64,000 nucleotides of DNA. It comes from a virus. Both the position numbers and the translations under genes were made by a program. Location: the IMG/VR virus record IMGVR_UViG_3300021963_007714, positions 1 to 64,000 of that record. The stretch is one strand, 5' to 3'. The notes beneath the pieces are model-generated. The model saw only the letters and a list, made by a program, of their open reading frames with translations, made no database searches and was not told where the DNA came from. Shown here in pieces: positions 9,831 through 63,998 of the stretch. Position 1 is the stretch's first letter; every line of letters starts with the position of its first letter.

Positions 9831-10743
9831 TAACAATGAAACTCATAAAATTAGGTTTTACATTTATAAATCTAATCTTGCTCACAGATGGAGAAAAATG
9901 GTTATGGCAAACCAAGAGCAGGAAAAAGAATTAAATTATAAATTTACAAATAGGACCTACGATCAAATTAGTAAAGTAAGACAAGACCTTAATCTCGTTG
10001 TTCAAAATATAAATTTAACGTATGATAAAAAATTACCTATTTTTGACGATGTTGAAGTTCTCAACACAGACATTTTAAATTATCTTCATGAAGAATTTGA
10101 AGAATATGGAGATAGAATACCAGAGTTAACTAATCCAGTAACCTGGTGGACTAAAGAACTACATGATTATTTCTTAAAGTTAAACGAGTTGATTCATTTA
10201 CACGAGGATGTTTTGAAAAGTAAAGATGCTGCCTTTGCCAACATGGCATTATTATTTGATTATTATCCTCAAGAAATATTCAGCCCTATATTGGAAAGAG
10301 ACAAGTTATTTTTAAAGGCAGATTTACATTGGGGCAAAGTATATCTAGGATACAACACCTTAGGTAAAGATTGGTTAAAAGTTCATTTAGACAATGATAT
10401 AGAAGTCCTAAAGAGAGGACAGGTTAGACCCCAAAAGAGGTTCGCTGCAGAAACGTGGATCAATTTTGGCCCGGACGGGTCTCCTTATTATCAATATCAA
10501 TCTTTTGAACAATGGTACATGAGTCTTGATAGCGAACTTCAAAAGTTAGTCCCTATAGATAATCTTAATGAACTATGTTTAGGTAGATTTATAATTGGTG
10601 AGGTCATAATAGATAATTACTTTTTAGCATTTGATCCTATCAAAGAAAATTGGCTGATACCAAGCAGTAGTACAAAAAAACGATGGAACCAACAAGTTTT
10701 TTCTAAGTTTCGAAAAATTAAAGAAATCTACATCAATGAATAG
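9799..10743 (+). CDS. Hypothetical protein in the modification operon (start may be 9808)
   Basis: Long ORF overlapping both neighbours; LNYLHEEFE...LNELIHLHE...YLGYNTLGKD. Confidence 0.6.
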   Translation: MALMTINFLDDNNETHKIRFYIYKSNLAHRWRKMVMANQEQEKELNYKFTNRTYDQISKVRQDLNLVVQNINLTYDKKLPIFDDVEVLNTDILNYLHEEFEEYGDRIPELTNPVTWWTKELHDYFLKLNELIHLHEDVLKSKDAAFANMALLFDYYPQEIFSPILERDKLFLKADLHWGKVYLGYNTLGKDWLKVHLDNDIEVLKRGQVRPQKRFAAETWINFGPDGSPYYQYQSFEQWYMSLDSELQKLVPIDNLNELCLGRFIIGEVIIDNYFLAFDPIKENWLIPSSSTKKRWNQQVFSKFRKIKEIYINE

Positions 10744-19969: not shown

Positions 19970-20215
19970 ATGCGTATAGAAGAATTATTAGAAAAGATTG
20001 CCGCACCTACAGCCAGTCAATGTTCTGTAGGAAAAAGCCGCCTAAGCAATGTAAGGTATAGCCAGTGTGTGAGTAGAGGTCTACTCAAGCATGATAGTGA
20101 TCATACAGCCGGCACAGGCAAACAAGGCAAAAAAGGCAGTGGAGTAAGACTTAAAGGCAAGAAGATGAAGAGTGAGATACACGGTGGTCCTGTAAAGGAC
20201 TATGACAGTAAGTAA
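19970..20215 (+). CDS. Small basic late protein (start revised from 19919)
   Basis: TAAATA 5 nt before ATG 19970; begins MRIEELLE. Confidence 0.65.
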   Translation: MRIEELLEKIAAPTASQCSVGKSRLSNVRYSQCVSRGLLKHDSDHTAGTGKQGKKGSGVRLKGKKMKSEIHGGPVKDYDSK

Positions 20216-20558: not shown

Positions 20559-20882
20559 CTATATACTGAAACTAGCACCACATCCACATGTGGAAACGGC
20601 ATTTGGATTGCGGATGACAAATTGACTGCCATTTAGATCATCTTTATAATCTATTTCAGCGTCGTGTAGATAGGTCATACTCATTGAATCTACAACTATT
20701 TTATAATGACCTAGCGGAAATTCCCAATCATCATCAGCCTGATCTTCGTCGAAGGTAAATCCATATTGAAAACCTGAACATCCACCACCTTGTACAAAGG
20801 TTCTTAACTTAAGATTGGGATTACCTTCTTCATCTAGTAATTCGGTTATCCTAACTCTTGCTGAATCACTGATTGTTAGCAT
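20559..20882 (-). CDS. erpA: Fe-S cluster insertion protein ErpA
   Basis: [21 protein letters not shown]...VDSMS...[14 protein letters not shown]. Confidence 0.9.
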
Positions 20883-49400: not shown

Positions 49401-52400
49401 AGTACAGTTTATCAAACGCCTACAGGTGCAGTATATCCATTAGCCCTAACTGGTCAGACTGATCTAGTTAATGATAATGTGGTCAATTGGTACATCTATG
49501 ATTACGATACTATAACATTTACTCCAATCACTACAAGCACCATTACCTATAGCTTTGCTACAGGTACTAATTTAATACCGTTAATAAAAAATTCTACTAT
49601 CTACATTTTTAACGAAAATACAAAAATTGGGCAAACTGCGGCAATCGTTGGATTTACTACCAGTACCTTAACTGTAACAAGACCTGGATTACTACCTGAA
49701 ATAAGCGGTACTACTATATATCTAAACTTTACAAGTACTACAGCAGTCAGCACATATTCAGATGATGTACAGAAGATTGCAGGTATTGAAACAAGTGACA
49801 GCTATAAGACTATTTTTGAACCGAGAAATCAAAAGGAAGCTCTATATTGGTCCCTGTTAGCACCTGGAAAGTATGGTCAAACTTTTCCAGCACAGGGTAA
49901 GTCATTAACCGAATTAATCGATAGAAATAAAACTGCGGCATTTTTTAACAAGCTGGTATATAGACCTATAGAAGTTAAAATAACAGACATTAATAATAGT
50001 CTGTCTAGTCCAATTACTGTAACGTCAACTGCCCTTACTTTCTTAAATCCGGGCTATGAAATTGTTGCGCAACTTCCAACGAGCCAATCGATGGACATAG
50101 TAAATTGGTACATAAACGAAAATACTTTATTGCCTATAACAGCCATTACTACCACAAGTTATCAATTAAACTTCTATGGCAACGTTTATCAAAATCCTCT
50201 AAACAAAGTTAGGATTGTAAAAGGAAATTATACAAGTGCTGTATTGACTGTGACCAATTCTATACCAAATCAAATTACAGTTAATGCACCTCTAGGACTT
50301 CCACCAGTTTCTGGAGGGTTCATCTACTTCGCAGACAACATCAGTATTGACACTGCTAGCTACACTGATGTAAAACGTGTGCCTGTCACCGGTAACTTAC
50401 TTACCCAATCAAGTATCGTAACTAATTTAGCACCTATAACACCTCAGCAACATTTATTTTGGAGCCTATTAAGTCCTAGTAGTTATGGTAGAAGTGAAAT
50501 CATAATTGGCAAGCAGACTGCTCCTATTGTTGGCGCTAGAGATATTAATCCTACTGTACAATCTGCTGTATATGGTACAAGCACGGTTATCTATATCACT
50601 AATCCAGTATCAGTTAATGGCAGATCAAATGAATTTACCAATAATGTTGTGAACGATTATATCTATGATAATGATATCAGTATCTTCGTTCCGATAACTA
50701 CCAGCACAGTGACATTATTCTACGATAATGATCAGGCCATAACTAGTAATTACATTAGGTTGGTGAAAAATTTCACAGGATATACACAAGATTTTAATGC
50801 TATAACAGTCACTAATTCACAAACTACCTTCGTAACAACAAGTAGTTTGCCTGCTATAAGTGAAATGCAAATTTACTTTGGCTATCCAACAATTACCGAT
50901 GTTATTACTTACAATGATACCGGAAGAGTGGAGAATATAGCCGCTATTTCTAGTATACCAAAACTTCAGCTCATTACATTGGGTATAAAAGGTTATAACG
51001 GTATTACACTAAATCCGTTAGATAAGGTGTTAAGAGAAAGTGATCCTTTCTATAAAATTAAAACTTTAACCTCTGTTTCATCTACTTCCACTATTGTATA
51101 TCCTAATCAAGGTTATGAACCTATCGCTGTAACAGATTCTATCAGTGATAATTTTGTAACTGTATATACCTACGATCAAGAAGTATTGTTACAGACCTAT
51201 ACCACAAGTTCGTTTATTACCTATGACTTTTATGCCACAGGATACTATATAAATCCAAATAACACTGTAAGAATAGTCAATAGCAATAATGGATTTGACA
51301 GAATTTACAGTATTGTATCTGCTACTAATTATTCTATCACAGTTTCTAATACCGGTGATCTTCCAGATGTTTCAGGAACAAGATTGTTCTTTGGCATTAA
51401 TACAACTATTGATACAGATAATTATTCATATAGTGTACAGAACTTCGATAATCTAATTGGTAATTTAACTCAAGCGTCACAAAGACTTGGAGAGGCTGTT
51501 TCTGGAATAAAATTATCTAGCTTTAGTTTACAAAATTATGATAACCCGGGATTCATATTAGATCCTTATTATGGAATTGTATCAGACTCAACCTATCAAA
51601 ATAATTCTTTAGAATATATTACCTATGATAAAGATGTTTTTGTTACAGGGATATTAAGTCGTGGAGTAACAACTACACTCTATATCAATAATCCATATAA
51701 TAAGATCTATGATCCAAAATTATTGTTTTATCCAACAAACTATGCCAAGTTAACCTTAGGTACCTTTACTAGTGTGGTTTACCTGTTGGCAACTGATTAT
51801 TATACAGTGACATTTAATACTGTAGCAGGTATGCCAGTAGAAGTTAATGGTATGACAATTGTAAATGTCAGCTATGCTTACTATCCACAAAGTGAAGCTA
51901 ATAAGATTGTATTGACCAATGGTATTTTATTCCAGCCTACTACTCCTAAGCAGGCACTAGCCAGCAGTTTGTACAATCCATTAAGGGGTATTGATTATAA
52001 CATTGATCGGGTTCTTCATCAACCTACTACAATACTGAAATACGATCCTAAACTCAGTACTTTCTATAGTAGTAGAATACCTGGAGATTTCAGTCATGTA
52101 TTGCTAGATCAAACATCAAATACTAGGGAAATATATGACATTCCTACCTGGTATGAATATGATCGTGACCTACTAACATATTCTACAGGTTCTGTATCTA
52201 CTAAGAAGCTAAGTTTCAATACTATTGTAGGTGTACCATTTCCTGCTGGTAGATCTATAAGAATTCGTAATGACAGCATTAATCTAAATTACATTACTAC
52301 AGTTACAGAAGCTGCAGTTGGATATGTTATTATAAATCAACCTACTGTGACCTTCCCAACAGCTGGTACTTTTGTAGAATTGGTTGAATCTGTGCTTTAT

Positions 52401-53672
52401 CCACAGAGTATGGTTGTAACCACTGTGTCTCCCCAATCCGCCAAAGAAAATCTGTATTACTTTGACAGAAGTCCAGGTTTAAGGGCTACTAAAGGACCAC
52501 CAGTTGCTAGTCTACAGACTTTATTAGATAGCGGCTCTGGAATAAGAAAAGACAGTACCATCATAAAGGGTGACGTTTTACGTTTTGATGTAGGAAAAAT
52601 CCTACAACCTATCAAAATCATCGCAGTAGATAATAGAGTTTCGGTGGCAAGTACTAAGATTAAATTGACTGCACGTAGTGTTCAAGATGATCGTAGAATA
52701 GTTGGCAAGCTAAGAAGTGCTATCACAGTAAGAGCTGATAGTTCAACCATTGTCTATGGTAAGTTGGCCGAAAGACGTATAGTACCTAACCTAGTGTCTG
52801 TGAGAGATAACCTGTCAGTGTCTAAACTTACCAACTATGAAAACATAGGTGAAGTTACTGGACCATATATCACTATAACTTCACATACAGATCTAGGAAG
52901 AACAGTTACAGGATATAGTCAAGAGTGGGCAGATAACTTTACCACAGTATATGCCTTTGACCAAGACATAATTACTCAAACCTATGTTAGAACTGACACT
53001 GTTCAAATATTTTATAATGCTGGTAATGATATAACACCCCTATTCCCTACAGGGTCAGAGTTTTACCTACAAGACCTTAACACCGGATATCAACGACAAT
53101 TTATAGCTTTAGAAGGCAATATTGGAAACGTAGTGATTAATAATCCAGGGTTCTTACCTGGTATCAGCAACATGCAGATAGTTTCAACTGCCTCTAGTTA
53201 TCCAATAACATTGACATTTGGTCAACAGGTACTACAGCCTTATTATGTGGGTAGTTATATCAGTGTAATTAATAGCATTGGCCAAAGTGTGAAAGTGGTT
53301 TTAACCGCAGCGACTAGAAGTAGTGTAACCTATGTTAAAAATTATTCTTACAGAGACTTTAGGTTTGCGCCAGGCAGTGTTAGTCTAGCCAGCTTGAGCG
53401 TACCAGTATACCCAAGTGCTACAGTTAGACCGACAAGCAAACCTACAAATATCAGAGAAAACTTATTCTTTGTAAGCCTGGCACCAAATTACGAGCACAG
53501 AGCAGAATTAGAATTTACCTACAGCAATTTGGTTGATGATGTCAGCGTGCTGTCCTATGATAGTGCTACCGGAATCATTAATAAATATATGGTTGGTGAT
53601 ACTGCTAAGGGCCAAACTGGAGTTACAGATCCTAGCGCCAGAAGAGTAGAACCCATACAGTTCTGGAGCTAA
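37494..53672 (+). CDS. Giant (5392 aa) repeat-built Thr/Ser-rich virion protein
   Basis: Uninterrupted 16.2 kb ORF; ~30 copies of a core like DVVNxYIxDNDLLP; TAAATA 7 nt before ATG. Confidence 0.8.
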   Translation: MPILVFPPPGSPGSQALTATFVVVVPEAGTPKQVLQSISTSTVTVFIQEGIPVTSQPAYYSADVVNWYINDNTLLPLTPVSQSTITLTYRSTPIYNPLNKIKIRSSSYEFPIIVTPTTVTSTSLSFTNPIELNLPVISDARIYFGENTTVETPRYSGDSVPTYELKYTGRKFPKIPVLEIPERGYQLTTVTNTTATLGPTVGVPIVNQTYFDSSNYVNYYLYDSDIFTVTHSVPPTITVNFVYDQRIKITNLIRVANQEYTYPRVLTLTSSTNSSITFNNPGDFGVWSQGYIYFQEINSIQIASYTATNNTVLLGNFDLVARRKVRIGVELAELPNLPNAEVVQKNDQLRAIGYQFGKPGPSFQNITTSSIVIFPNPGYSALTQSAYYSSDIVRNYIYDEDLFPLTASTESTVVLTFNPVEYINLVNKVRISGSSYTYPTILNLTSATNTSVSFVNPGDFPIISEPVIYFGQDSITENVRYSSDLVSEFSSALVSNPVFRIVQPLFELRPRAAILVTVTNYTSTMFSSIGIPILNQTAYYTSNVVDYYINDNDLLPLTAISTASITISFFNSIYTNQLNRVRIANETYEYPRVINLTTSNSTSITFNNPGDFGIISEGKIYFQESVTQVNSVYSESPYQFNIAYPTLDVKRHVRIGEQFVDTTLRVGSQELSTVTSSATIVYPGPAIPIPYLESKYLADVVNYYINDNDLLPLTNLTTASIRLNFAYTTFQNPINKIRIFGPEYNYPRLITITSATNTYVEFANPGDLPVISDPKFQFAENSQIDTAIYISRDFANFTYLPYRKVKLGNEIKASSTSTITSGAVARYKFSLPLTTQFSNQLPPNIGAINVWTALDHDLPFFNTPLVYNIAQTIYTTGFPAPGFYTYTSVQRGDVARGLAPITIPGDIASYTNNYLVFLGRAPLREPAAGLVKIGQGALTRRIVEPIRFTRPNIYITVTSATSFARSVNLQDIPAKYTSDYVSYYLYDNDIFTITNLSTVTSYVLPFIDSNVNLDLYTPDSTIQLANRDSGYIYPSPITFTSYDTTSVSITLASELPIISGPRLLFIQPSSVDILLTQSTASFITAQGSVGSLYTQSLVSSILPPVSPRERLFYSRLAPGYGLRGIPIAESTRSQIYPIATVTTPRVGEHVVIGDPFASVEPTLGLGNFTLKPRRSLVVGDGIAIAGNIFQPNRIEYSRFPGVSPGVDFGVYIRTLSTVTSSAAIVYPGPIIRVPYLDSNYTSDVVNWYINEETLLPLTAVSTSTIRLTFQNTSYVNPLNKIRVFNSNYTYPNSITPGLINLTSATNNYIEFANPGNFPVISEPRFQFAEISSVDVALFSTSATIVRPIASILTSTLVTATVFMSSLGAVDLITRRVKTNNFISTDITISSGATTLDYRRKNLLGSNIADVLSTATQLTAGTLTTRRSLRIGAILQDTQISTPVIAKFDFIVARARRIYSQWEGFYSSATQTITQITTTATIRYPNVGIPIISQQAKYSSDAVSWYIYDNNTLPINQITTSSITYFFDPFAYINPDNVFKAVNERTGVTHAPLYVTTSTAGSVTFANTSIPVVSDLKIYFGSSSTQDIVTYSSPIFLPRTESYADQFTAVNRASVPSALRNYYMHKIAPGYNSVQAVSFTHLTVGGRPPSQLDNYIGTDVITNESVNLGALPSNRYDVVNQYIYDTNVPQRTTGYDSNITLNFDNNNVPGVTPLRFKLGQTVRFTQSESTYTGTATITISNLQGVTFSTPSGFPVLGGIVVTNITTASYSVDWAFRDLSDKVTFRNNTRVLENLAQVGRKPNLRGISIFLERGITHQHTLHKTTSDGLDFYRDSRLEGDYPVQTTGRSAAEPILIPTPDLRNPYNIINSYIFDDNIITNNARADRIQYNAVQNYIYDNEIFTRSVISAFTGTNLVTYDFDRRDFNTFPAGSMIRLKYGLNQITTATVVSSTVYGVTIQDIKQFPGANNLTISRYPATLANQFTDNFTIDNKGYAIYNYLLARMAPGIRKGYTSNIFYASETSRLGPLPKLSSSIVVKPDSWYASRTVTSVQTSSTIVYPNGRIEITGRSQEYTNNTVNQYIFDRDIFVGSYILFNSTYLLDSNQYATPNADRIQYNSVNIYTYDLELYSRTNIFLDRSVITLYFNKNTIVINPNNIVRVSNQITGYSNTFTIFNVTSRSVDLLNPNPYSTFPSISNLFLEFGVVTTSDSASFSNYNRIPILTQSNLPVRSPSVRRIETSATTMVMSLPTYRDRLTTAAKVIAPTQISTQVAKSSIKISIGSTVVSQNFNRTLTGITTSTSIVYHSSRVAQVTAIGNKFTNNIVSLYTFERDIIVTQTIISPTIDVYYQNIVPTLNYDKVKIERADTGYSFESNIISFHAGVSGLPPYIKLPVSIGFPEVSATPIFLSFGIAIQNNTPIYTDSNQIGYVPLQRYIRQKNQILTPVVQAIDVPMDLRKTWTGSTASSVISYSGNYGLLPAPASYTSDYVSTYINDSDIFVITPLASTSTVVLNFQTHLDIVTNLNENNVIRLSNGTNEWQAILTPTNVSTTAITFTYVNFPVISEPQVSFQRTSSIATATYTMSRSGIYVESLSKQTVQVKAVERRPEYAVTRQGIKLIGEISYPVRTLSTVTSTATISYPGPGIEIIARNNFDVYNIVSEYTFDSNIIRSTSVLDTVQYNTVNLYTFDRDIWIRSVIRENITLFYTLNGPNPSNIIKLYKTNTGYEATPTVLAFTNYEDGKKSVTIAYEPNFPSISNMFIQFGFNSISSTPIYLDNNRIPLVTGPRFLTKNYRILSFVPEVKEVYNQKQTLTTVTTTATQVFPNYGIHTSHIPATYTSDYVTYYTYDNDLFPLTTISQPGNITLFFTPTDYINNTNQIRLGNKEYTYPSVINLTSATNTSVSFNIVGSFPIISDPTIFFAENSYIDTAIYTVSSRPITYDIIKPQGIKLQDPSRPIITKSTLTTFVTPVTQRSSIPITGIIQSRNNFIPSIYVRDNEILSFTTSTANISDFVSVYTFDRDIITVSSFNAITLQFTYPGFRQITDKIAVTNVNSGYRTIHTVLTSSERTVTFASTSNFPSVSELYIDFNWISSTATISYNDSISSIALYQPSLMSEGQVRPNVINGANVREAYFKSLLQPSRAGRRSFVYTTEITPITYNPRIESLRTVNQLRADNSYATRQLTGLSTSTNITYPNASVPVTARSGLFNYNIVRDYIFDNNILPRESRTISAITLFFDKNTQLVTNLVKIQSPSLGYSFEITALSTSQNSITIPAIPLPDILDLVVYFGVSVSTNTPIYLDYNRVPNVGNPRALTNKNQILSPVVSNIADISNQFKNLNTVTTTSTLVFPNIGIPITNQAAQYTSDVVSYYIYDNDLLPITQLASTSTVTLFFNTTTYINTDNKIKIVNPNWESSVYNLTSATSSYITFEAANFGIVSEGRILFAQTSTIDTAVYSEIKIATPVAKLWTGIVVKDPSTPRITVRQTSQTVFTPIRISGAIPVTGIRSRSNNFVNTYIYDTEFLTFTTSNNITITFDAVSAAQVGNSVIIHNGLGYVSSFSLTSATTRLATFVNPGNFPEITGMYFYYYTTQSSAVTIGNYDIVNNITTTTSQLSYSNQSPFFYHRLGVKGIPFQRNQLATQNTPVANYVKQGLKVVADSSYPARSLISVTTSSDIVYIGNPIYITARSTEYTNNVVSQYIFETDRFIGNRIVTATITLSFYPTVYINPLNKIRLVNPNNGYSQDINISSSTNRTITFTPPLGDFPAISDLYFLFGQTSISSTPIYTDNNKVTLIAAMAAVRPKSVRALMTLPEVVDIDRVFQTLTTVTSTSSLVFPGSGTPILNQYPTNTTTAVTWYYNDEDILYVTQNTSSTIRLAFESSTYINPVNKIKIAHDGYEYQSIISLTSATDTYIEFADPGNFPVVINSRIYFAQSTTQDIAVYGQGRSPVRIEKYRDISILKEIRSTITFRTTSTVYQTPTGAVYPLALTGQTDLVNDNVVNWYIYDYDTITFTPITTSTITYSFATGTNLIPLIKNSTIYIFNENTKIGQTAAIVGFTTSTLTVTRPGLLPEISGTTIYLNFTSTTAVSTYSDDVQKIAGIETSDSYKTIFEPRNQKEALYWSLLAPGKYGQTFPAQGKSLTELIDRNKTAAFFNKLVYRPIEVKITDINNSLSSPITVTSTALTFLNPGYEIVAQLPTSQSMDIVNWYINENTLLPITAITTTSYQLNFYGNVYQNPLNKVRIVKGNYTSAVLTVTNSIPNQITVNAPLGLPPVSGGFIYFADNISIDTASYTDVKRVPVTGNLLTQSSIVTNLAPITPQQHLFWSLLSPSSYGRSEIIIGKQTAPIVGARDINPTVQSAVYGTSTVIYITNPVSVNGRSNEFTNNVVNDYIYDNDISIFVPITTSTVTLFYDNDQAITSNYIRLVKNFTGYTQDFNAITVTNSQTTFVTTSSLPAISEMQIYFGYPTITDVITYNDTGRVENIAAISSIPKLQLITLGIKGYNGITLNPLDKVLRESDPFYKIKTLTSVSSTSTIVYPNQGYEPIAVTDSISDNFVTVYTYDQEVLLQTYTTSSFITYDFYATGYYINPNNTVRIVNSNNGFDRIYSIVSATNYSITVSNTGDLPDVSGTRLFFGINTTIDTDNYSYSVQNFDNLIGNLTQASQRLGEAVSGIKLSSFSLQNYDNPGFILDPYYGIVSDSTYQNNSLEYITYDKDVFVTGILSRGVTTTLYINNPYNKIYDPKLLFYPTNYAKLTLGTFTSVVYLLATDYYTVTFNTVAGMPVEVNGMTIVNVSYAYYPQSEANKIVLTNGILFQPTTPKQALASSLYNPLRGIDYNIDRVLHQPTTILKYDPKLSTFYSSRIPGDFSHVLLDQTSNTREIYDIPTWYEYDRDLLTYSTGSVSTKKLSFNTIVGVPFPAGRSIRIRNDSINLNYITTVTEAAVGYVIINQPTVTFPTAGTFVELVESVLYPQSMVVTTVSPQSAKENLYYFDRSPGLRATKGPPVASLQTLLDSGSGIRKDSTIIKGDVLRFDVGKILQPIKIIAVDNRVSVASTKIKLTARSVQDDRRIVGKLRSAITVRADSSTIVYGKLAERRIVPNLVSVRDNLSVSKLTNYENIGEVTGPYITITSHTDLGRTVTGYSQEWADNFTTVYAFDQDIITQTYVRTDTVQIFYNAGNDITPLFPTGSEFYLQDLNTGYQRQFIALEGNIGNVVINNPGFLPGISNMQIVSTASSYPITLTFGQQVLQPYYVGSYISVINSIGQSVKVVLTAATRSSVTYVKNYSYRDFRFAPGSVSLASLSVPVYPSATVRPTSKPTNIRENLFFVSLAPNYEHRAELEFTYSNLVDDVSVLSYDSATGIINKYMVGDTAKGQTGVTDPSARRVEPIQFWS

Positions 53673-53709
53673 ATAGACAGAAATGCTAAATAAATGAAAG
53701 GATCTAAGC

Positions 53710-53958
53710 ATGTTTGAAGAATTAGACAAAATGTTTCCTGGACATGGACATTTTTATGAAGTAGCAGGATTTACCGTAAATGAGGCACTAGAAAGATGTG
53801 CTAGACTTACTGTAGACGGCGACGATTATGTTACTCAGGTGAACGGAAAAATTATTTTTGTGAGTAAAACAAAATTAGATGTTAATGGAATTCCATGGCT
53901 TAATCCTGTAGCAGGGACTCCTGTAGATGTTGACGCAAGCCCAGTCAACCCAGAATAA
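53710..53958 (+). CDS. Hypothetical protein
   Basis: Two TAAATA motifs and AAGGA upstream. Confidence 0.7.
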   Translation: MFEELDKMFPGHGHFYEVAGFTVNEALERCARLTVDGDDYVTQVNGKIIFVSKTKLDVNGIPWLNPVAGTPVDVDASPVNPE

Positions 53959-53975
53959 TGAGGAATAATTAAAAA

Positions 53976-56900
53976 ATGGCCAAGCATATAATTCAAGAAA
54001 GTTATACATTTACACCAGGATCAAATACAATTGTATTACAAAATAGATTCCTGCGTCGTGAACAACTGGTTTTGATTACTAATGTTACAACTAACACGGT
54101 AATCTATAACTTCGCAGATTCGGCACTAAGAGCAACAACATTTACAACTAGTATTGTTGCCAACGTCGAAACAACTACAATCGTTCTCAACTATAACACA
54201 AGCTCAATGAGCAGCACAGACAAGCTGGCCATTTTGGTAGAAGAAACCAATGAAACATTTATGCCAGCTGAAGTGTACATTGATCCTGTTCAGAAATTAC
54301 GTGTTTCAACACCACAGAGTTTGATTGATACTGACTTCGAATATGGAGTGCAGCCAACCAAGTGGGAAACATTGAATCTAATGAATAATAGACCAAGTGG
54401 TTTTTATGACCCTACAGCACCTGTTACTATCACTTCTGTTTCAGGTAACGGTACAAGAGTAGTTACAGTGCTACTAGCAAACACTACTGGTATTATCGCG
54501 GGTAACCCAATTTATATTCAAGATACAATTGATCCTAATGCTAATGGTTACTTTATCATTGCGTCAGTTAGTACTAACGTTAACTTTACATATAACGCAG
54601 GAGCAAACGTAACCAACGGTATTATTTTCGATCAAACTAAAACATATGTATTCAATGCGATTCCATATACTGGCGCAGGGGTGGCTGTAACAACCACAGG
54701 TGGTGGTTCCTTTGTCAGATCAGCATTGAACGAAGTTACTGTAACAACTAAAGATAATCATGGATTGTCTGTAGGTGATGCGATCTTTGTCTGTAACACA
54801 ACAGCTTCTAGTAATCCACCAAATGGTGCTTGGTTTGTTCGTCGTACACCTACAACTAACACATTTATCTATGACACTATTGCAGATCCAACAGGTACTA
54901 TTACAGCCCAAGCCTCTGGTAGTGGTTTGACTGTTAATACCACAGTAGATGCTTCAGGTCGTATTATTGCTGTGGCAGTGAACGCTGCTGGTACACTATA
55001 TGCAGTGGGTGACATTGCTACAATTTCCGGTGGTGGCGGTAATGCTCGTGTTAAAGTTACAGCTATTATTCCATCAGCTACTGGTTCTTTAGTTGGTGCG
55101 GTGAACGGTGTACAGGTTAACCAACCTGGTACAGGTTATTCAGGTGCTTCAGGTGTAGCTACTACACTAAACTTCAGTGGTGGTACACTCTATGTTCGTC
55201 CATGGGGTAGTGCTATTCATAGACCATTTGACGGTGGTGTGTATTTTACTGCTGGTGTTCCTTATCACGGCAATCAGTTAATTCGTCAAACACGTCGTTA
55301 TTTCCGTTATCAATCTGGTAAAGGCATTCAGTTCTCAACTGGATCTAATATGACTTCACCGTTTATTGTTGATAACGTAACATCGTCAGGTTCTACTGTT
55401 ACTGTAACAACCAAGTTTCCACATAATTTATTTACAGGTGCTAACATTCGTGTTAGTGGCTGTAATGAATCAGCATATAACGGAACATTCAATGTTACAT
55501 TTTTAACTGCTACAACATTTAGCTACACTGCCTTATCAACACCAAGTGCTAGTCCTGCCACAGGTAGTCCGACTGTACAGCCTAATACATGGTTTGGATC
55601 ATTCATTCGTCTAGGTATGTTTGATAACCAGAATGGATTTTTCTTTGAATACGATGGTCAAGCACTATTTGCCTGCCGCCGTTCAAGTACAAATCAACTT
55701 TCTGGTTATGTAAGTGCTTTAGGTACAGGTGAACAGTCAGTAACTGGTGTTAACAGTAAATGGTCAAGTCAGTTGAGTCCTGGTGATTTTATTGTAGTAC
55801 GTGGTATGAGCTATACTGTAGTCAGTATTGAAAGTGATACAGCGATGACAATTTACCCAGATTACCGTGGTACTGCTATTGTTCCTCCGACGCAGTTAAT
55901 TATCAGTAGAACTGATACTCTACGTATGCAACAAAACACATGGAATATTGATAAGATGGATGGAACTGGAGAATCTGGTTTCAATATTGATATCAATAAG
56001 ATGCAGATGTGGTATATTGACTATACATGGTACGGTGCTGGTGCTATTCGTTGGGGATTTAGAACACAACGCGGTACAGTAGCATACGCACATAGGCTAG
56101 CACACGGTAATAACATGACAGAGGCTTACATGCGTACTGGTAACTTACCAGCTCGTTATGAAGTTTCAACAATTGCGCCCGTAACAAAATTAGCAGCCAC
56201 GTTAAGTAACTCAGAAACAGGCACAATCACAGTAGCAAGCACAACAGGTTTCCCAAATAGTGGAACATTGATCATCAACGCCAGTGGTAATACAGGCGCT
56301 GCTATCGAATATATTAGTTATACTGGAAAAACAGCTACAACATTTACTACATTGACCAGAGCATTAACAAACCTTACAGGTCCTCAAGGCCTAGCAAGTG
56401 GAGGTGGTGCTACTACAGCACAGACATTTACATTTAGTGCTACAGCACCTCACTCAGTGAGTTATTTTAGTCCACAATGTAGTAATACAATCAGTCACTG
56501 GGGTAGTTCTGTGATGATGGATGGTAGGTTTGATGATGATAAATCTATCGTGTTTATCGCAGGTATGACCACAGCCTACTCAAACATTGGCGCAAGTGTA
56601 CTCGTTCCATTATTGAGCATACGTATTAGCCCAAGTGTAGACAGTGGTTTAACTGGTGTTATTGGTGCTAGAGAACTTGTCAATAGGATGCAATTGGTTT
56701 TACGTTCAGCTGGTATCCAAACTTCTGGTACAAACTTTCTAATTACAGGACGTTTAAATGCTAGGATTACTGGTGGTACTGCTACTAGTTTTACTAGCGC
56801 TGGTGGTTCAAGCCTAGCTCAAGTGAATTACCACGCAAGTAACAATTCCGTGTCAGGTGGTGAGATTTGCTTTGGTGCTTTCACAGCACCTGGTGTTAAC

Positions 56901-57095
56901 GTACTAGACCTGTCTGTTGTACGTGACCTAGGTAATAGTATATTAGGTGGTGGTGCTGCTCTAAGTCATCCAGCTAGTGATTTAAACAAGTACCCAGATG
57001 GTCCGGACATTCTAACACTATGTGCTCAAAATACTGGTGGTGTTACAACTAACAGTATTATTGCTCGTATTGGTTGGACAGAAGCTCAAGCTTAA
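53976..57095 (+). CDS. Large virion structural protein (baseplate/tail-associated)
   Basis: LVLITNVTTNTVIYNFAD N-domain; LRVSTPQSLIDTDFEYG; paralogous core with 29226-30584 plus inserted beta modules. Confidence 0.75.
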   Translation: MAKHIIQESYTFTPGSNTIVLQNRFLRREQLVLITNVTTNTVIYNFADSALRATTFTTSIVANVETTTIVLNYNTSSMSSTDKLAILVEETNETFMPAEVYIDPVQKLRVSTPQSLIDTDFEYGVQPTKWETLNLMNNRPSGFYDPTAPVTITSVSGNGTRVVTVLLANTTGIIAGNPIYIQDTIDPNANGYFIIASVSTNVNFTYNAGANVTNGIIFDQTKTYVFNAIPYTGAGVAVTTTGGGSFVRSALNEVTVTTKDNHGLSVGDAIFVCNTTASSNPPNGAWFVRRTPTTNTFIYDTIADPTGTITAQASGSGLTVNTTVDASGRIIAVAVNAAGTLYAVGDIATISGGGGNARVKVTAIIPSATGSLVGAVNGVQVNQPGTGYSGASGVATTLNFSGGTLYVRPWGSAIHRPFDGGVYFTAGVPYHGNQLIRQTRRYFRYQSGKGIQFSTGSNMTSPFIVDNVTSSGSTVTVTTKFPHNLFTGANIRVSGCNESAYNGTFNVTFLTATTFSYTALSTPSASPATGSPTVQPNTWFGSFIRLGMFDNQNGFFFEYDGQALFACRRSSTNQLSGYVSALGTGEQSVTGVNSKWSSQLSPGDFIVVRGMSYTVVSIESDTAMTIYPDYRGTAIVPPTQLIISRTDTLRMQQNTWNIDKMDGTGESGFNIDINKMQMWYIDYTWYGAGAIRWGFRTQRGTVAYAHRLAHGNNMTEAYMRTGNLPARYEVSTIAPVTKLAATLSNSETGTITVASTTGFPNSGTLIINASGNTGAAIEYISYTGKTATTFTTLTRALTNLTGPQGLASGGGATTAQTFTFSATAPHSVSYFSPQCSNTISHWGSSVMMDGRFDDDKSIVFIAGMTTAYSNIGASVLVPLLSIRISPSVDSGLTGVIGARELVNRMQLVLRSAGIQTSGTNFLITGRLNARITGGTATSFTSAGGSSLAQVNYHASNNSVSGGEICFGAFTAPGVNVLDLSVVRDLGNSILGGGAALSHPASDLNKYPDGPDILTLCAQNTGGVTTNSIIARIGWTEAQA

Positions 57096-57109
57096 AAGCA
57101 TAAGCATAG

Positions 57110-57142
57110 AAAAGAAGGCTGCTATACGCAGCCTTTCTTTTT
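57110..57142 (+). terminator. Intrinsic terminator
   Basis: AAGGCTGC-tatac-GCAGCCTT then TCTTTTT. Confidence 0.85.
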
Positions 57143-57157
57143 AATAAATATAAGATC

Positions 57158-60100
57158 ATGCGATTAGAAGACATCAAAGAAGGCAGCAGAGTTGATCATC
57201 AACATCAATTCAAAGAGATGTTTGCTAGATTCCTACCTATTGCTATAGAAATTCTCAATCTAAAATCTCTGCCTGAATTTCACTTTGAAGCATTTTTAGA
57301 TCATCCTCAACAACCTACCTTCGGTATGTATGTCAACGGTGAAAATAAATTGTATGTAGGCCTAAGTGGTCGTCATCCTAATGACATCTTTAGAACCATA
57401 GCACATGAATTAACTCACTACAAACAAGACACTGAACACATGCTGGATGATCGCAGCGGCGAGACTGGTAGTCCTATTGAAAACCAAGCCAATGCCATGG
57501 CTGGTATCATCATGCGTCATTTTAACAAAACCTATCCTGACTATCTTCGCAGTAAACCTGTTATGGAAGATATTGATGTCACTGATGAAAGTCTCAAAGG
57601 TTTGGCTGCTGCTGGACTAATAGGTCTAGGCATGTTAGGTGGTCCCAAAGATGTAGCCAGTGGTAACCTACCACAAGACCTACAAAAGGCACAGCAGCAA
57701 CACCGTGTTCAAATGGCTAAGAAACCTATGGCCAAACCCGCAGCGACAAAACCAGCAGCAGCTAAACCTTTACCAGCTAAAGCGACCCCTTTGTTAAAAG
57801 TAGCCAAGGCTAATGGTATTAAAGGCGTAGAACTAGCACAGTTTTTGGCACAAATGGAACATGAAAGTCTTGACTTTAAGAAGATGAAGGAGTTAGGTAA
57901 ATCGACCTACTTCAACAAATATGATCCAAAACATAACCCTAAATTAGCTAATAAATTAGGAAACAAATTCAAGGGTGACGGACTACAATTTAGAGGTCGT
58001 GGCTTTATACAATTAACAGGCAGAGAAAACTATACACAGGCCAGTCGTGACATATTTGGTGATGATAGGTTAGTTAAGAAACCAGACCTAGCAGCACAGC
58101 CAGATATAGCAGCACGTATAGCAGTATGGTATTGGACTGATCGTGTGAAACCTTTGGTCAAAGACTTTTCAGATACTACTCGTGTTACAAAGATTATCAA
58201 TGGTGGACTAAACGGACTTGAAGATAGAGAAAATAATTTCAGAGACTATATGGCCAGTCTTGGCCTAATGGAAAAATGGTCAATGAAGTATAAAAAGAGT
58301 ATCAATTGCGCCAATCCCAAAGGGTTCAGTCAGCGTGCTCACTGTCAAGGTCGTAAGAAAACAGAAGATGTAGAACAAGATCCAGGAGATCCTATACCTT
58401 TTCCAGCAGGCACTACTTCGGTAGATGTTAGTGATCCCTATGATTGGTATAAACTAGGCATGGTAATAAGTGATCTAGATGATGCCAATCCTCAAGCATT
58501 TGGACGAGGTGGTCCCAGCACTGTGATTGCCTTTGGCAGTGAAGATGAAGAACATAGACTGCTGCCATACCTTAAAAGACTTGGACTTAAACTAAAAGAC
58601 ATTGACAAACCCAGTGACACTAGAAAAATTGTGCCCGCCAAGGCTGTGTTAGACAAATTGGAAGAAGGTTTTAAACTAGACGAACTTAATATTAATCAAA
58701 CGCTGGCCTTTATCAAACAGGCACATGGTGATCAACTCTATGGCAAACTGCCCTATTGGACCCATCCTCGTGCTGTAGCCATGACAGGCAAAAAGATCTT
58801 TGGCAACAAGTTTAATAGTGATGCTGTAAAGGTTGCCTTCTTACATGATGTGGTAGAAGATACTAATATAAGTATAGATGAATTAGGCAAGTTAGACTTT
58901 TCACCACAGGTCATTGAAGCAGTGAGCCTGCTGACAAAGAACAAGACATTGACCTATCGTCAAAATATAGAAAACATTATCAACAGCGGCAACCCTTTGG
59001 CCATGATGGTCAAATATGCTGACAACTATGAAAACTATTCAGGTGATAAGAGCGACTGGGATTCTGCTCGAGCAGCCAGCAGTCAAAAGAAATACTTGAT
59101 GAGCCTTAATATGTTAGGGAGTAAGTTAGGTGTAAAACATCACGAGCAAAATTTAAAAGAACTAGGAACTACACAATATAAAGTAACAGAACCTAGAGAC
59201 ATGGTCAACGTTGATTTTAGATCCAAGCAAATTACCTACAAAGTTTTTAAATTCAAAGTAGATAAGCAGGTATTTCTAATTGTGCTCACTGTAAAAGACC
59301 AGGCAATGCCGGGCTCTAAGAAAAAGGTTCCAACCCTAAATGTAGCGTTTGGTAGGCAAGATAAAAACGGTTGGGACGTTGACGATATTGACACTAACCT
59401 AACTGGTGATAATCAAAATCAATTTCAAATCTATTCCACTGTGATCAAGGCCATACAAAAGTTTATTACTCAATTGAATCCTAATGTAGCACAAATTATA
59501 ATAAAAGGAGACAATGAGAGACAACAGGTAATGTATGATAGATTTTTTAATTCACGCTACTTGGAGAAATTTTTTCCAGGTTGGCAATTAAACCCAACAA
59601 CTAAAACTCTAATAAAAAATCAAAGTCAAAATTTAAAGGAACTTTTGGACCCTAAATTAGCCATAGATCTTGATTGGGCAGAGGGTAGTGATTATATTGC
59701 TGCCAGAGGTTATGTCACAGTGACTGATCAATATGGCAACAAAGAAGATGTAGAATTAGAAGTAGAATTCGGGGAATTTCCACAAAGAAATCGTAAAGAA
59801 TACGAAGTTCAATTTAAAGTAGGCGATAGTTATGATATAACAGGTGGTGGCAACGCTAATGTGATTTTTGCCACGGTTATACAGGCCTGTAAAGATTTCG
59901 TGGAAATGTATAAACCAGATCGATTATTCTTCACAGCAAAAGAGCAGTCTAGAGCAAGAATGTATGATACACTGACTAAACGTGTGGCCAAGCAGGTAGG
60001 ATGGCACGTTATACCATTTGATGAAATACAAAAGGATCCATTGTATAGAAATAACAGTGATAATGGGTTCGTGTTTGTCATAGGGAAAGGTGCTGCACCT

Positions 60101-60547
60101 GAAAAATGGTCCAGTGCTCAACAGCCACAACACGGTAGTTTTATGCCTATTTTCTATGTATATAATGTAGATAAAGATACACCTACTGTGGCAGTTAAGG
60201 TTAGGGCCCCAAATAGGGAGACTGCTGTTCAGCACGCTATGAAAATAGAACCCAGTTTTAAAGATTTGGATTTAATGCAGATACACGCCTTGAACAGCCT
60301 ACCCAAGCGTGAAGTCACTGATGTAATAGATGGTGGCACAGCAGAAGATCCTAGAAAGGTAGGAGAAAACTTTGCTGATGGTAAGAATCCACAGGATAAA
60401 GGTGATAGTGGTAGACACGGCATAAAAAAAGGTATTACAATAGCACAACTAAAAAAGATTAGATCCAGTGACTCAGCCAGTCCAAGAAAAAAGCAGTTGG
60501 CACACTGGCAGATCAATATGAGACAGGGGCGTAGTAAAAAAGGATAA
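57158..60547 (+). CDS. Multi-domain polyprotein: zincin metallopeptidase-like + GH19 muramidase + Mesh1/SpoT-like HD hydrolase + further modules
   Basis: AHELTH (57401); AQFLAQMEHES, GRGFIQLTGRENY, INGGLNGLEDR; AH.DQ...PY.THP..VA...FLHDVVEDT...VKYADN. Confidence 0.85.
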   Translation: MRLEDIKEGSRVDHQHQFKEMFARFLPIAIEILNLKSLPEFHFEAFLDHPQQPTFGMYVNGENKLYVGLSGRHPNDIFRTIAHELTHYKQDTEHMLDDRSGETGSPIENQANAMAGIIMRHFNKTYPDYLRSKPVMEDIDVTDESLKGLAAAGLIGLGMLGGPKDVASGNLPQDLQKAQQQHRVQMAKKPMAKPAATKPAAAKPLPAKATPLLKVAKANGIKGVELAQFLAQMEHESLDFKKMKELGKSTYFNKYDPKHNPKLANKLGNKFKGDGLQFRGRGFIQLTGRENYTQASRDIFGDDRLVKKPDLAAQPDIAARIAVWYWTDRVKPLVKDFSDTTRVTKIINGGLNGLEDRENNFRDYMASLGLMEKWSMKYKKSINCANPKGFSQRAHCQGRKKTEDVEQDPGDPIPFPAGTTSVDVSDPYDWYKLGMVISDLDDANPQAFGRGGPSTVIAFGSEDEEHRLLPYLKRLGLKLKDIDKPSDTRKIVPAKAVLDKLEEGFKLDELNINQTLAFIKQAHGDQLYGKLPYWTHPRAVAMTGKKIFGNKFNSDAVKVAFLHDVVEDTNISIDELGKLDFSPQVIEAVSLLTKNKTLTYRQNIENIINSGNPLAMMVKYADNYENYSGDKSDWDSARAASSQKKYLMSLNMLGSKLGVKHHEQNLKELGTTQYKVTEPRDMVNVDFRSKQITYKVFKFKVDKQVFLIVLTVKDQAMPGSKKKVPTLNVAFGRQDKNGWDVDDIDTNLTGDNQNQFQIYSTVIKAIQKFITQLNPNVAQIIIKGDNERQQVMYDRFFNSRYLEKFFPGWQLNPTTKTLIKNQSQNLKELLDPKLAIDLDWAEGSDYIAARGYVTVTDQYGNKEDVELEVEFGEFPQRNRKEYEVQFKVGDSYDITGGGNANVIFATVIQACKDFVEMYKPDRLFFTAKEQSRARMYDTLTKRVAKQVGWHVIPFDEIQKDPLYRNNSDNGFVFVIGKGAAPEKWSSAQQPQHGSFMPIFYVYNVDKDTPTVAVKVRAPNRETAVQHAMKIEPSFKDLDLMQIHALNSLPKREVTDVIDGGTAEDPRKVGENFADGKNPQDKGDSGRHGIKKGITIAQLKKIRSSDSASPRKKQLAHWQINMRQGRSKKG

Positions 60548-60549
60548 CG

Positions 60550-60762
60550 ATGTTTCTAAATACCATAGCAGTAATTTTTATTACGTATGCCATTTTAATT
60601 TTATTTTCAACCAAAGACGGAATTAGCAAGCAGGTAAGACAAGCCCTGGGCCCAGAAGATTTGGAAAGACTTCAAACTGAGCTCGACTATCGCGAATATT
60701 GGGCTGTTTTATTATTCCTATTTGGTTTATTAATCTTACTACCTAAATTAATAATGTGGTAA
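60550..60762 (+). CDS. Small two-TM membrane protein
   Basis: Two hydrophobic segments; AAGGA upstream. Confidence 0.65.
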   Translation: MFLNTIAVIFITYAILILFSTKDGISKQVRQALGPEDLERLQTELDYREYWAVLLFLFGLLILLPKLIMW

Positions 60763-60784
60763 AAAAAGGGCCTTATGGCCCTTT
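60761..60784. terminator. Probably bidirectional intrinsic terminator
   Basis: A7-GGGCC-ttat-GGCCC-TTT between convergent genes. Confidence 0.75.
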
Positions 60785-60803
60785 AAATCTCTATGAGATA
60801 GGT

Positions 60804-61091
60804 TTATCTTCTGCCGCCTGCAGCATTAACAAATTGATACATTTTTTCAGCAGTCTCTAGAACTTTGTCTAGTCCCGGGAACTCAGGCATACCAACTGAT
60901 GTTACAATCTGACCTGTCTTTTCGTCACGTTTGACAGAGCTTTCCCAACCTTGCCATTTGTAGGTATATTCAGCTTGGACAAGATCTTTTGCCATGGCTA
61001 GGATGTCGGTGCGGATTTCATATCCGTTCTTATTGAACTTTACTTCGGGCATTTTTAATTCTGGTAAAATACGATCTGAATTAGACATCAT
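60804..61091 (-). CDS. Hypothetical protein (start revised from 61166)
   Basis: AAGGAG RBS before ATG 61091; KNGYEIRTDILAMAK...PEFPGLDKVLETAEKMY.FV. Confidence 0.75.
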   Translation of the reverse strand: MMSNSDRILPELKMPEVKFNKNGYEIRTDILAMAKDLVQAEYTYKWQGWESSVKRDEKTGQIVTSVGMPEFPGLDKVLETAEKMYQFVNAAGGRR

Positions 61092-63378: not shown

Positions 63379-63615
63379 GTGTCTGGACCAACAGATATTG
63401 AAAAAGAAAATCTTGAGGCACATGTAGAACTTTGTGCTGTCAGATATAAAGAAATAGAAAATAGATTAAGTGCGATTGAGGGCAGTGTTTCTAGCCTCAA
63501 AAAAACTGTAGAAGAAAGCCACATGAATACTATTAAAGTTTTAATAGGAACAGCTGGCACAGTAGTTGCCAGTGTGTTAGGTGTTTTAGTTGTCGTTCTA
63601 CAGAAAATGTCATGA
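63379..63615 (+). CDS. Coiled-coil protein with C-terminal TM
   Basis: AGGAG RBS; LEAHVELCAVRY, heptad region, hydrophobic tail. Confidence 0.7.
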   Translation: MSGPTDIEKENLEAHVELCAVRYKEIENRLSAIEGSVSSLKKTVEESHMNTIKVLIGTAGTVVASVLGVLVVVLQKMS

Positions 63616-63998
63616 AAATACAAGAGCTATTAGGCGAACAAACCATAGGAACTTCAGGCTCTACTACAGGACCGGTAGGAACTGTATCACAGGTTAGTCA
63701 AAAACCCAGTGATAAACCTATGACCGCTACTAGCACACAACAAGACTCAACTACAAAAAATCTAGACAATCTATTAAAACAAAATCAAATCAATGTGAAA
63801 AATACAGATGATTTTTTAAGAGCTTTTGACGCCATACAACAAAAGCAACCTATCAATAATCTTCCACCTGAGCAACAAAAGGCCATAGGTGACTATACCA
63901 AAGCTACTATTAATCGTCCTGGTTTACCTACACAAATGGCTTCTATAATGAAGTCTATAAAAACTGCTAATACAAACAACACAGCTAAACCTGCTTGA
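63612..63998 (+). CDS. Hypothetical protein
   Basis: ATGA overlap; MKIQELLGE start. Confidence 0.65.
   Translation: MKIQELLGEQTIGTSGSTTGPVGTVSQVSQKPSDKPMTATSTQQDSTTKNLDNLLKQNQINVKNTDDFLRAFDAIQQKQPINNLPPEQQKAIGDYTKATINRPGLPTQMASIMKSIKTANTNNTAKPA

Follow-up and report, generated by a model that had tools for sequence, protein, structure and literature searches.

A modular polyprotein gene of a T4-related jumbo phage as candidate head cargo with prohead-protease-like sites between its modules

What might a phage do with a single late gene that joins at least seven unrelated modules through short linkers carrying a Glu site? Such a gene lies in the window analysed here, a stretch of 64,000 nucleotides that forms positions 1-64,000 of IMG/VR record IMGVR_UViG_3300021963_007714, a 109-kb fragment covering roughly 30% of its genome. 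The source is an uncultivated giant T4-related water phage, a jumbo phage with a genome of about 360 kb. We combined domain searches, structure prediction and comparison with relatives, and the answer that we favour, with moderate confidence, is that the gene encodes a head-cargo polyprotein that is loaded into the head, cut by a gp21-type protease and injected with the DNA.

Architecture of the gene and identity of its modules

The open reading frame at 57158-60547 of the plus strand is real and encodes 1129 amino acids. An earlier note on this DNA had described it as one modular gene, and Pfam, PHROG and structure matching do find the modules, in the order leader, mini-zincin, signal-like segment with GH19 muramidase, Cys/basic unit, module D, HD hydrolase, two DUF6934 modules and basic tail. 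The features of the locus are as follows.

57115..57142, + strand: terminator-like hairpin (stem 57115-57122 / 57128-57135) with T run, read from the sequence; closes the upstream structural gene
57142..57150, + strand: T4-late-promoter-like box TAATAAATA, 15 nt before the ATG
57158..57181, + strand: N-terminal leader MRLEDIKE (aa 1-8), ends I-K-E; from sequence and family comparison
57182..57568, + strand: mini-zincin (aa 9-137), HELTH at 83-87, third ligand Glu 108, ends V-M-E137
57569..57589, + strand: acidic spacer DIDVTDE (aa 138-144), second Glu site T-D-E144
57590..58273, + strand: hydrophobic segment, Ala/Lys/Pro linker and GH19, ends L-M-E372
58274..58366, + strand: basic two-Cys mini-module of 31 aa (aa 373-403), ends K-T-E403
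58367..58666, + strand: module D (aa 404-503), small alpha/beta domain, ends L-E-E503
58667..58684, + strand: spacer GFKLDE, second site L-D-E509
58685..59161, + strand: HD hydrolase (aa 510-668) of RelA/SpoT-hydrolase, Mesh1 or small-alarmone-hydrolase type, ends L-K-E668
59162..59641, + strand: DUF6934 module F (aa 669-828), ends L-K-E828
59642..60367, + strand: DUF6934 module G (aa 829-1070), GNAT-like fold, ends V-G-E1070
60368..60547, + strand: conserved 59-aa basic C-terminal tail NFADGK...HWQINM... and stop codon
60550..60762, + strand: small ORF (70 aa, two hydrophobic segments), 2 nt behind the polyprotein stop

The gene directly follows the structural gene block in this record, and a [T/A]ATAAATA box also stands 12-15 nt ahead of the ATG in eight other ORFs of the contig; Pfam searches with the upstream 5392-aa ORF and the 1039-aa structural protein found nothing. 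The preceding structural genes and the promoter-like box may point to a late or packaging context here, whereas in G001, a complete relative, the neighbours serve replication and nucleotide metabolism and are not structural genes.

The zincin was earlier proposed from its HExxH motif, and both its fold and the invariance of H, E, H and the downstream Glu across an alignment of 18 homologues bear this out. AlphaFold models the module with pLDDT above 90 (H4-29, E36-40, E52-55, E60-64, H70-88 with HExxH, H102-121 with the Glu), and its top 50 structural matches all have the zincin fold, the best being Wss1 (Z 8.3, rmsd 3.4, 101 aligned), with further matches to SPRTN, minigluzincins and, at Z 5.7, ArdC. 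The PHROG metalloprotease match is weak, at E up to 0.1 the module has no match to any zincin or peptidase family in Pfam, and its only relatives among phage records are free-standing 130-aa genes of three cyanophages, in replication-gene context.

The GH19 muramidase assignment (about aa 205-370) holds by Pfam (E 6.6e-8, 33.1 bits vs a cut-off of 25.5), PHROG endolysin (E 1.5e-41) and PDB (9ms7, E 4.8e-22) matches and by the model, which resembles phage endolysins with Z 21.0 (rmsd 2.2, 163 aligned). Its QMEHES...KMKE stretch resembles the catalytic-Glu motif, a likeness of sequence rather than a mapping onto a solved structure, and the Ala/Lys/Pro linker before the domain has pLDDT below 50.

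Could GH19 simply be the lysis enzyme, a signal-anchored endolysin with the adjacent 70-aa protein as holin and the other modules as passengers? We consider this very improbable, even though a hydrophobic segment precedes the domain, the 109 kb contain no GH19 besides the polyprotein copy, and L005 and L006, two close relatives, keep the two-segment membrane ORF behind their polyprotein genes. The signal-peptide-like segment (aa 145-166) is internal, behind the zincin module, and would become N-terminal only after a cut at Glu 144, whereas a SAR endolysin has it at its own N terminus. Moreover, relatives of the G002 type carry a second, free GH19 right behind the polyprotein that contains one, the G001 polyprotein lacks GH19 altogether, and in most relatives the gene behind the polyprotein encodes something other than a membrane protein. 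Any link of the 70-aa ORF to the polyprotein is uncertain.

For the HD hydrolase, also claimed earlier, PHROG 990 (E 4e-29) and PDB matches to RelA/SpoT hydrolase, MESH1 and (p)ppApp hydrolase (E 5e-5 to 4e-3) agree with the motifs HP..VA, LHD..ED and K.AD readable in its sequence; against the HD family of Pfam it scores 15.8, short of the cut-off of 22, and the alarmone substrate is predicted from domain identity. This region of the whole-protein model has moderate confidence only, probably because the mosaic alignment is noisy. The two modules once described as paralogous, F and G, are both DUF6934 (45 bits vs a cut-off of 27) and 25% identical to each other (E 0.002), with residues 834-980 of G matching many acetyltransferases at Z 7.3-8.3. 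Among the smaller units, the 31-aa Cys/basic one (aa 373-403) is shuffled on its own in relatives, and module D occurs in 109 of 174 tail-bearing relatives, mostly immediately ahead of the tail.

Searches with the entire protein recovered less: Foldseek with the whole 1129-aa model returned only GH19 and weak GNAT matches, comparison of the full protein with phage records gave matches through the GH19 and HD modules only, and T4 IP or Alt families were absent among its Pfam and PHROG matches. Going by domain identity, the modules may form the kit that the earlier note envisaged, one that would penetrate the wall, remove alarmones and cut proteins.

The Glu motif at module junctions

The junction Glu are residues 8, 137, 144, 372, 403, 503, 509, 668, 828 and 1070 (codons at 57179, 57566, 57587, 58271, 58364, 58664, 58682, 59159, 59639 and 60365). 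Every motif listed earlier at a module end is indeed in place, with a hydrophobic P3 missing at KTE403 and TDE144. The protein contains 14 [LIVM]xE sites, 8 of which coincide with module borders set independently by BLAST. In total, 46% of 778 homology breakpoints lie at most 8 aa from the Glu of such a site, compared to 19 ± 8% for random positions (observed value reached in 58 of 20000 trials) and 28% for random Glu residues (713 of 20000 trials). The junction pattern in the polyprotein is beyond chance, and family-wide 48% of 1841 breakpoint peaks are near a [LIVM]xE site vs 23% of random positions.

The motif behaves as a unit of its own. At the site adjacent to the tail, which we compared across 122 distinct upstream contexts, P1 is E in 122/122 and P3 is V, I, L, M, F or Y in 113 (background 28.5%), while P2 is free; constancy at P3 and P1 amid drift at P2 and in the flanks speaks for a recognition site under selection. 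Five modules (zincin, GH19, HD, F and G) close with the same motif regardless of the module that follows, and relatives keep the tandem Glu sites that precede HD. This motif equals the specificity of the T4 prohead protease gp21, L/I-X-E (PMC9026906).

We also considered a DNA-level origin of the junctions. A 31-nt repeat (81%) spans both QNLKEL junctions, at 59133-59163 and 59613-59643, but this single repeat is too little to account for a motif present in 122 contexts, and we rejected the idea.

Structure prediction had been proposed as a check on whether the sites fall in disordered linkers, and AlphaFold places 8 of the 10 junction Glu in low-confidence linkers compared to 5 of 6 other sites in folded parts (40, 245, 567, 575 and 587). 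Glu 8, 403, 503, 509, 668, 828 and 1070 are within or border segments with pLDDT<50, and Glu 144 lies in a 64-pLDDT stretch between domains; less clear-cut are Glu 137, at the zincin edge (pLDDT about 75), and Glu 372, at a predicted helix start (about 72).

Relatives, as the earlier note had anticipated, gain and lose modules at these same Glu sites. L005 and L006 are ~90% identical or more to the polyprotein over shared modules, and each is without one or more whole modules, excised between Glu sites: L005 differs by the absence of the HD module alone, and L006 has ...KFEE fused straight onto NFADG. Where module G is N-terminal it reads MRFREIIKE/LLDPK, and where it is internal NQSQNLKE/LLDPK.

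Leader, tail and protease in the family

The genomic context of tail-bearing relatives was drawn from IMG/VR loci, of which 477 bear the tail. It is C-terminal in nearly all relatives found, with exactly one tail gene per genome in the five genomes searched, and its 59 aa have a pI of 11.2 and a predicted helix-loop-helix. In relatives, the next gene downstream overlaps the stop codon of the tail gene and has a leader as well, which speaks for the head-cargo reading. The tail had no tblastn match in 50,697 GenBank phage records, and megablast of 53000-61000 against GenBank phages likewise found no match and no cultured relative. The ESM Atlas returned viral clusters of 58-65 aa (score 0.91), which we treat as a lead only; a full-text literature search for 'NFADG' found no paper, and the literature on T4-like CTS homologues in marine phages held nothing on the tail-bearing family. 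Judging by identity of DnaK (77%) and of the tail (80-90%), this fragment is probably kin to G001 and G002.

Many relatives also share a common start, with the consensus M[RK]xx[ED][FIL][IL]xE. The strict 9-aa leader opens 102 of 292 family proteins vs 1 of 3652 internal Met, and MRLEDIKE of the polyprotein here is one residue under the family form, a shortened variant. By sequence, these leaders are close to the T4 capsid-targeting sequence (CTS), MKTYQEFIAE (PMC8442874), a likeness that the earlier note did not have and that adds to its case. This T4-CTS-like family leader and the near-universal C-terminal tail in the relatives found, both recognized in sequence comparisons, are what is new here.

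Would a protein that never enters the head look the same? It could be a cytoplasmic polyprotein or multi-domain enzyme whose linkers are remnants of gene fusion, left uncut or cut by another phage or host protease. In G001, where its neighbours are genes of replication and metabolism, a Lon-like ATP-dependent protease is encoded four genes ahead of it. Many modules are metabolic, those of relatives being often nucleotide-metabolism enzymes such as NT5C, dCMP deaminase and HAD phosphatases; they may work in the cytoplasm as well, and the same modules occur elsewhere as separate genes. We nevertheless find this account decidedly unlikely, as it does not fit the constancy of P3 and P1 over drifting P2 and flanks in 122 contexts or the match of the N-terminal leaders to a known head-targeting tag, and leaves the universal C-terminal tail without a role. 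An uncut protein would also face a conflict of topology, as its internal hydrophobic segment would leave HD, which acts in the cytoplasm, and GH19, which acts on the wall, on one side of the membrane.

As to the protease, neither gp21 (PF03420) nor gp23 (PF07068) was found in the phage's own 109-kb record, which covers ~30% of the genome. Among tail-bearing records, the 4 with a completeness of at least 97% all encode both a gp21-type protease (Peptidase_S77) and gp23, and S77 is present in 7 of 10 tail-bearing records overall. Its gene adjoins the gp23 capsid gene in near-complete tail-bearing genomes, and in G001, whose S77 protease maps to 92846-96283, a scaffold-like gene lies between the two, giving the order gp21-gp22-gp23. 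The search for a gp21/S80-type protease called for earlier thus succeeded in the near-complete relatives (4/4) but not in this fragment, and the earlier prohead-cargo reading as a whole stands in part: modules, exchange at junctions and linker disorder support it, and its own fragment lacks the protease.

The polyprotein brings a potential protease of its own, and a polyvalent protein processed by its own zincin, whether in cis or in trans and whether inside the head or once injected, would need no prohead protease. Autoprocessing by zincin-like domains is a published proposal (PMC5512222). By its fold and the invariant HExxH...E the zincin may well be an active peptidase, and it is the commonest enzyme module (78 of 174 tail-bearing relatives), with one copy, fused or free, per genome checked. 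However, it is present in 18 of 27 sampled members, and the other 9 keep the junction motif without it. It is itself flanked on both sides by the motif and, as a free gene in G002, ends exactly ...IFE, which makes it look like cargo; cyanophages without any tail-bearing protein have free homologues, and the motif and leaders match the T4 gp21 system, which is zincin-free. We judge self-processing by the zincin to be unlikely, and processing by a prohead protease to be the best, and a fairly probable, reading.

The head-cargo reading and its parallels

As the linkers match the T4 head protease site, the protein is probably loaded, cut and injected; we infer head loading, cleavage, the identity of the protease, ejection and the host role of each module along the following lines. 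The polyprotein would be made late in infection and enter the prohead through the T4-CTS-like leader, the 59-aa basic tail or both. A gp21-type (S77) prohead protease would then cut after Glu in the [V/I/L/M]-x-E linkers, releasing the mini-zincin, GH19 with a new signal-like N terminus, the Cys/basic peptide, D, the alarmone-type HD hydrolase and two DUF6934/GNAT-like modules, which would leave the head along with the DNA at infection.

The closest parallel is T4 itself, whose IPI, IPII, IPIII and Alt are CTS-targeted, gp21-processed and ejected head cargo. The polyprotein shares with these a short N-terminal leader ending in hydrophobic-x-Glu, the L/I-X-E motif and, by its late-promoter-like box, late expression, and complete relatives share the T4-type gp21/gp22/gp23 head module. 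Whereas T4 cargo has a single function and is cut at its ends only (Alt at both), here at least seven modules are separated by internal sites, and the conserved C-terminal tail has no T4 counterpart. Short C-terminal elements that load otherwise unrelated proteins are known from encapsulin cargo peptides and from the basic, coat-binding helix-turn-helix of the P22 scaffolding protein; the basic, predicted helix-loop-helix tail is like them by description only, and its binding to a head protein is conjectural.

Polyvalent proteins, described by Iyer, Burroughs, Anand, de Souza and Aravind in 2017 from phages and conjugative elements, are predicted to be delivered with DNA and to release their domains by proteolysis (PMC5512222). 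As in these, unrelated enzymatic domains share one phage polypeptide, frequently around a zincin-like metallopeptidase hub, with peptidoglycan-degrading and nucleotide-signal-degrading domains among them. At least two disparate activities are predicted from the domains (zincin, GH19, HD and two DUF6934/GNAT-like), and the zincin model has the polyvalent architecture of N-terminal helix, three strands, HExxH helix and Glu helix. What sets the protein apart is the T4 prohead-protease motif in its linkers and the shared C-terminal tail.

The giant phages phiKZ, 201phi2-1 and SPN3US load many inner-body and ejection proteins into the head, all of them cut after Glu at a motif of three residues; the enzyme is a diverged homologue of gp21, and some sites are redundant and lie in tandem (PMC9026906). 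The three-residue Glu motif and tandem sites recur here, but their motif is S/A-X-E, their substrates are mostly proteins with an N-terminal propeptide and not strings of enzymes, and the near-complete relatives encode gp23 as capsid protein and a protease of the canonical Pfam S77 family.

If head cargo is the right reading, these phages would inject, before any phage gene expression, an enzyme set that can be customised (wall hydrolase, alarmone hydrolase, nucleotidases, deaminases and acetyltransferase-like modules). A single gene in each genome could then reveal the content of this set for hundreds of uncultivated phages, making what giant phages inject something to catalogue. The packaging logic of T4 CTS and gp21 would extend from single proteins to polyproteins, tail and linkers could serve in laboratory systems as transferable tools for getting foreign proteins into T4-type heads, and the proposal of zincin self-processing in polyvalent proteins would gain a test case, one in which a different protease is the better candidate.

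A broader idea, which we find attractive but rather doubtful, is that the universal basic tail and the T4-like tag address any enzyme to the prohead, that [VILM]xE linkers let modules come and go, and that new termini steer the pieces to host compartments. Modules would be added or removed within the single gene per genome, and an example of a new terminus would be the Sec-signal-like N terminus on GH19, sorted after injection.

Domain composition and genomic setting of the polyprotein

The 1129-aa polyprotein (P0001) is encoded by ORF 57158-60547 (+) within a 109,028-bp IMG/VR record estimated by CheckV to be ~30% complete, of which the window covers the initial 64 kb. The gene is preceded by a structural block on the same strand, containing a collagen-like tail fibre, an ORF of 5392 aa and a virion protein of 1039 aa; the last of these shares 40–45% identity with T4-like cyanophage structural proteins. 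The 5392-aa product is a single ORF (window 37494-53672 (+)), neither half of which matched Pfam.

The N-terminal module is a mini-zincin whose HExxH motif and downstream Glu are invariant across 18 homologues. With its domain model (pLDDT 87), the top 50 matches of an unbiased structural search all had a zincin fold, and matches include Wss1 (Z 8.3), SPRTN (7.8), minigluzincins (6.3–6.8) and ArdC (5.7). Between the zincin and a GH19 muramidase (Pfam E 6.6e-8; PHROG endolysin E 1.5e-41; structural Z 21.0 against a phage endolysin) come a hydrophobic segment (aa 145-166) and an Ala/Lys/Pro linker. The remaining chain comprises a 31-aa two-Cys basic unit, a ~100-aa alpha/beta module (D), an HD hydrolase of the RelA/SpoT-hydrolase/Mesh1/small-alarmone-hydrolase type, two DUF6934 modules with a mutual identity of 25%, the second with a predicted GNAT-like fold (Z 7.3–8.3, ~115 residues aligned), and a 59-aa basic tail (pI 11.2). 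In the homologues P0098, P0103 and P0099, the hydrophobic segment after the Glu site ends in L-S-A-C or A-A-A-C, which looks like a lipoprotein signal box that only cleavage would expose.

Leaders, tails and module exchange at glutamate sites

Ahead of the first module of a protein stands a 9-aa leader (for example, MRANEFITE, MKILDIISE or MRFREIIKE|LLDPK), and where the same LLDPK module is internal, the border reads ...NLKE|LLDPK instead. The strict leader closely resembles the T4 capsid-targeting sequence MKTYQEFIAE (PMC8442874) and was found in 102 of 292 family proteins compared to 1 of 3652 internal Met; P0001 carries a shortened version, MRLEDIKE. The tail is C-terminal in nearly all relatives, occurs at 477 IMG/VR loci, once per genome in each of five genomes searched, and has no match among GenBank phages.

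The earlier note described a modular ORF with Glu motifs at its junctions, where homologues should gain or lose modules; comparative data confirmed and strengthened this. Searches covering 5.8 and 1.8 billion proteins returned thousands of relatives that have single modules in common, at up to ~90% identity, in different combinations, with partners that include NT5C nucleotidase, HAD phosphatases, dCMP deaminase, cytidylyltransferase, GNAT, amidoligase, nucleotidyltransferase, ART domain and LysM. HSP ends cluster on P0001 at residues 11-20, 131-140, 361-370, 401-415, 481-510, 661-670 and 1061-1070, with a minor peak at 821-830, and 46% of 778 breakpoints lie no more than 8 aa from one of its 14 [LIVM]xE Glu, compared to 19% of random positions (58 of 20,000 random trials attained the observed 46%). 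Across the whole family, the proportion near a site is 48%, compared to 23% at random.

Irrespective of the module that follows, the zincin ends in ...KP[VI]xxE, GH19 in ...[VIM]KE and HD, which has two tandem sites in front of it, in ...HH[IL]xE. Among 122 distinct contexts preceding the tail, P1 is Glu in all, P3 is V/I/L/M/F/Y in 113 and P2 is free. Two close relatives (~90% identity or more over the modules in common) provide natural experiments: L005 misses only HD, excised between ...KLEE and NLQE|L, and L006, with an additional N-terminal NT5C module, lacks HD and both DUF6934 modules and fuses ...KFEE directly to NFADG.

Linker disorder, also predicted by the earlier note, was borne out in the structure model at most junctions. 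The full-length model (mean pLDDT 71.6) falls below 50 at residues 1-5, 154-199, 383-409, 492-538, 625-692, 822-829 and 1064-1077; junction Glu 8, 403, 503, 509, 668, 828 and 1070 lie within or abut these segments and Glu 144 is in an inter-domain stretch (pLDDT 64). Glu 137 (~75, zincin domain edge) and Glu 372 (~72, predicted helix start) are less clear. Non-junction sites 40, 245, 567, 575 and 587 are modelled in the interior of folded parts.

Candidate proteases

T4 gp21 cleaves after Glu in L/I-X-E and also trims both ends of Alt (PMC9026906). Neither S77 protease nor gp23 was found in the 109,028-bp record (~30% complete); 4/4 tail-bearing records at least 97% complete carry the two, which adjoin. 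Two relatives' genomes, G001 and G002, are ~364 kb and their DnaK-like proteins are 76–77% identical to that of this record, which fits its completeness estimate.

Contig 81746-83641 (L003 3746-5641): DnaK/Hsp70-like chaperone gene, 66–68% identity to bacterial-type DnaK in GenBank records

The S77 protease and gp23 genes of G001 have a coiled-coil scaffold-like gene between them, and in the same genome an L-S-E ~41 residues from the capsid protein start is consistent with a propeptide site. An 86-aa leader-bearing protein of relatives (L010 and L023, both 10362-10622) has TATAGATSAGN right after its Glu site, nearly identical to the capsid protein (L098 1459-2637 (-)) past the putative propeptide site (LSE|SATAGATSAGN).

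Processing by the zincin module itself, in cis or in trans, would follow the autoprocessing that Iyer et al. proposed for polyvalent proteins (PMC5512222), but is improbable: 9 of 27 sampled members without a zincin retain the junction motif, sites flank the zincin on both sides and a free zincin gene in G002 terminates in ...IFE.

L094 578-985 (-): free zincin gene of G002, 135 aa, ending exactly ...IFE
L094 3-581 (-): following gene, beginning with a perfect leader, MRAKEFLFE

Flanked by sites and free in G002, the zincin thus looks like cargo, although it may act in trans, and the same parts can be fused or encoded by separate tagged genes. Motif identity, comparative anatomy and the relatives' genomes best support a moderately likely reading in which the polyprotein would be loaded into the prohead, diced by a gp21-type protease and its pieces ejected. 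Compared to T4 internal proteins and published polyvalent proteins, what is new is a string of enzymes joined by predicted prohead-protease sites, with a common C-terminal tail and in a single copy per genome.

Neighbouring genes and transcription signals

In G001, the polyprotein gene neighbours genes for DNA polymerase, a cytidyltransferase, a Lon-like protease and a free GH19, which begins MILLEQIQE, and at many loci the following gene overlaps the polyprotein stop codon and has a leader; the gene is thus often within a cluster of leader-bearing genes, not among classical structural genes. Here, the next gene encodes a small membrane protein, also next in L005 and L006 (~96% identity).

Window 60550-60762 (+): 70-aa ORF with two hydrophobic segments, beginning 2 nt past the polyprotein stop

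This ORF could be holin-like, and its presence leaves a role of the GH19 part in lysis as a low-probability alternative.

A box resembling the T4 late promoter TATAAATA precedes the polyprotein gene and, at -12 to -15, eight further contig ORFs.

57115-57142: terminator-like hairpin closing the gene upstream of the polyprotein
15 nt upstream of the polyprotein ATG: TAATAAATA box
Window 332-1072 (-), 2433, 20559-20882 (-) and 57158: [T/A]ATAAATA 12–15 nt before ATG
Contig 75915, 84182, 86832, 93949 and 104109: [T/A]ATAAATA 12–15 nt before ATG

As the boxes lie so close to their ATGs, with no ribosome-binding site visible in between, the sequence suggests that late transcripts have leaders that are very short or absent. 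Further small ORFs with T4-like capsid-targeting starts (MKIQELLGE, MRIEELLE, MKIVELFE and MSITDVILE) lie at window 63612-63998 (+) and 19970-20215 (+) and contig 66067-66426 and 84182-84484 (L002, L003), and may be additional head-cargo or internal-protein genes.
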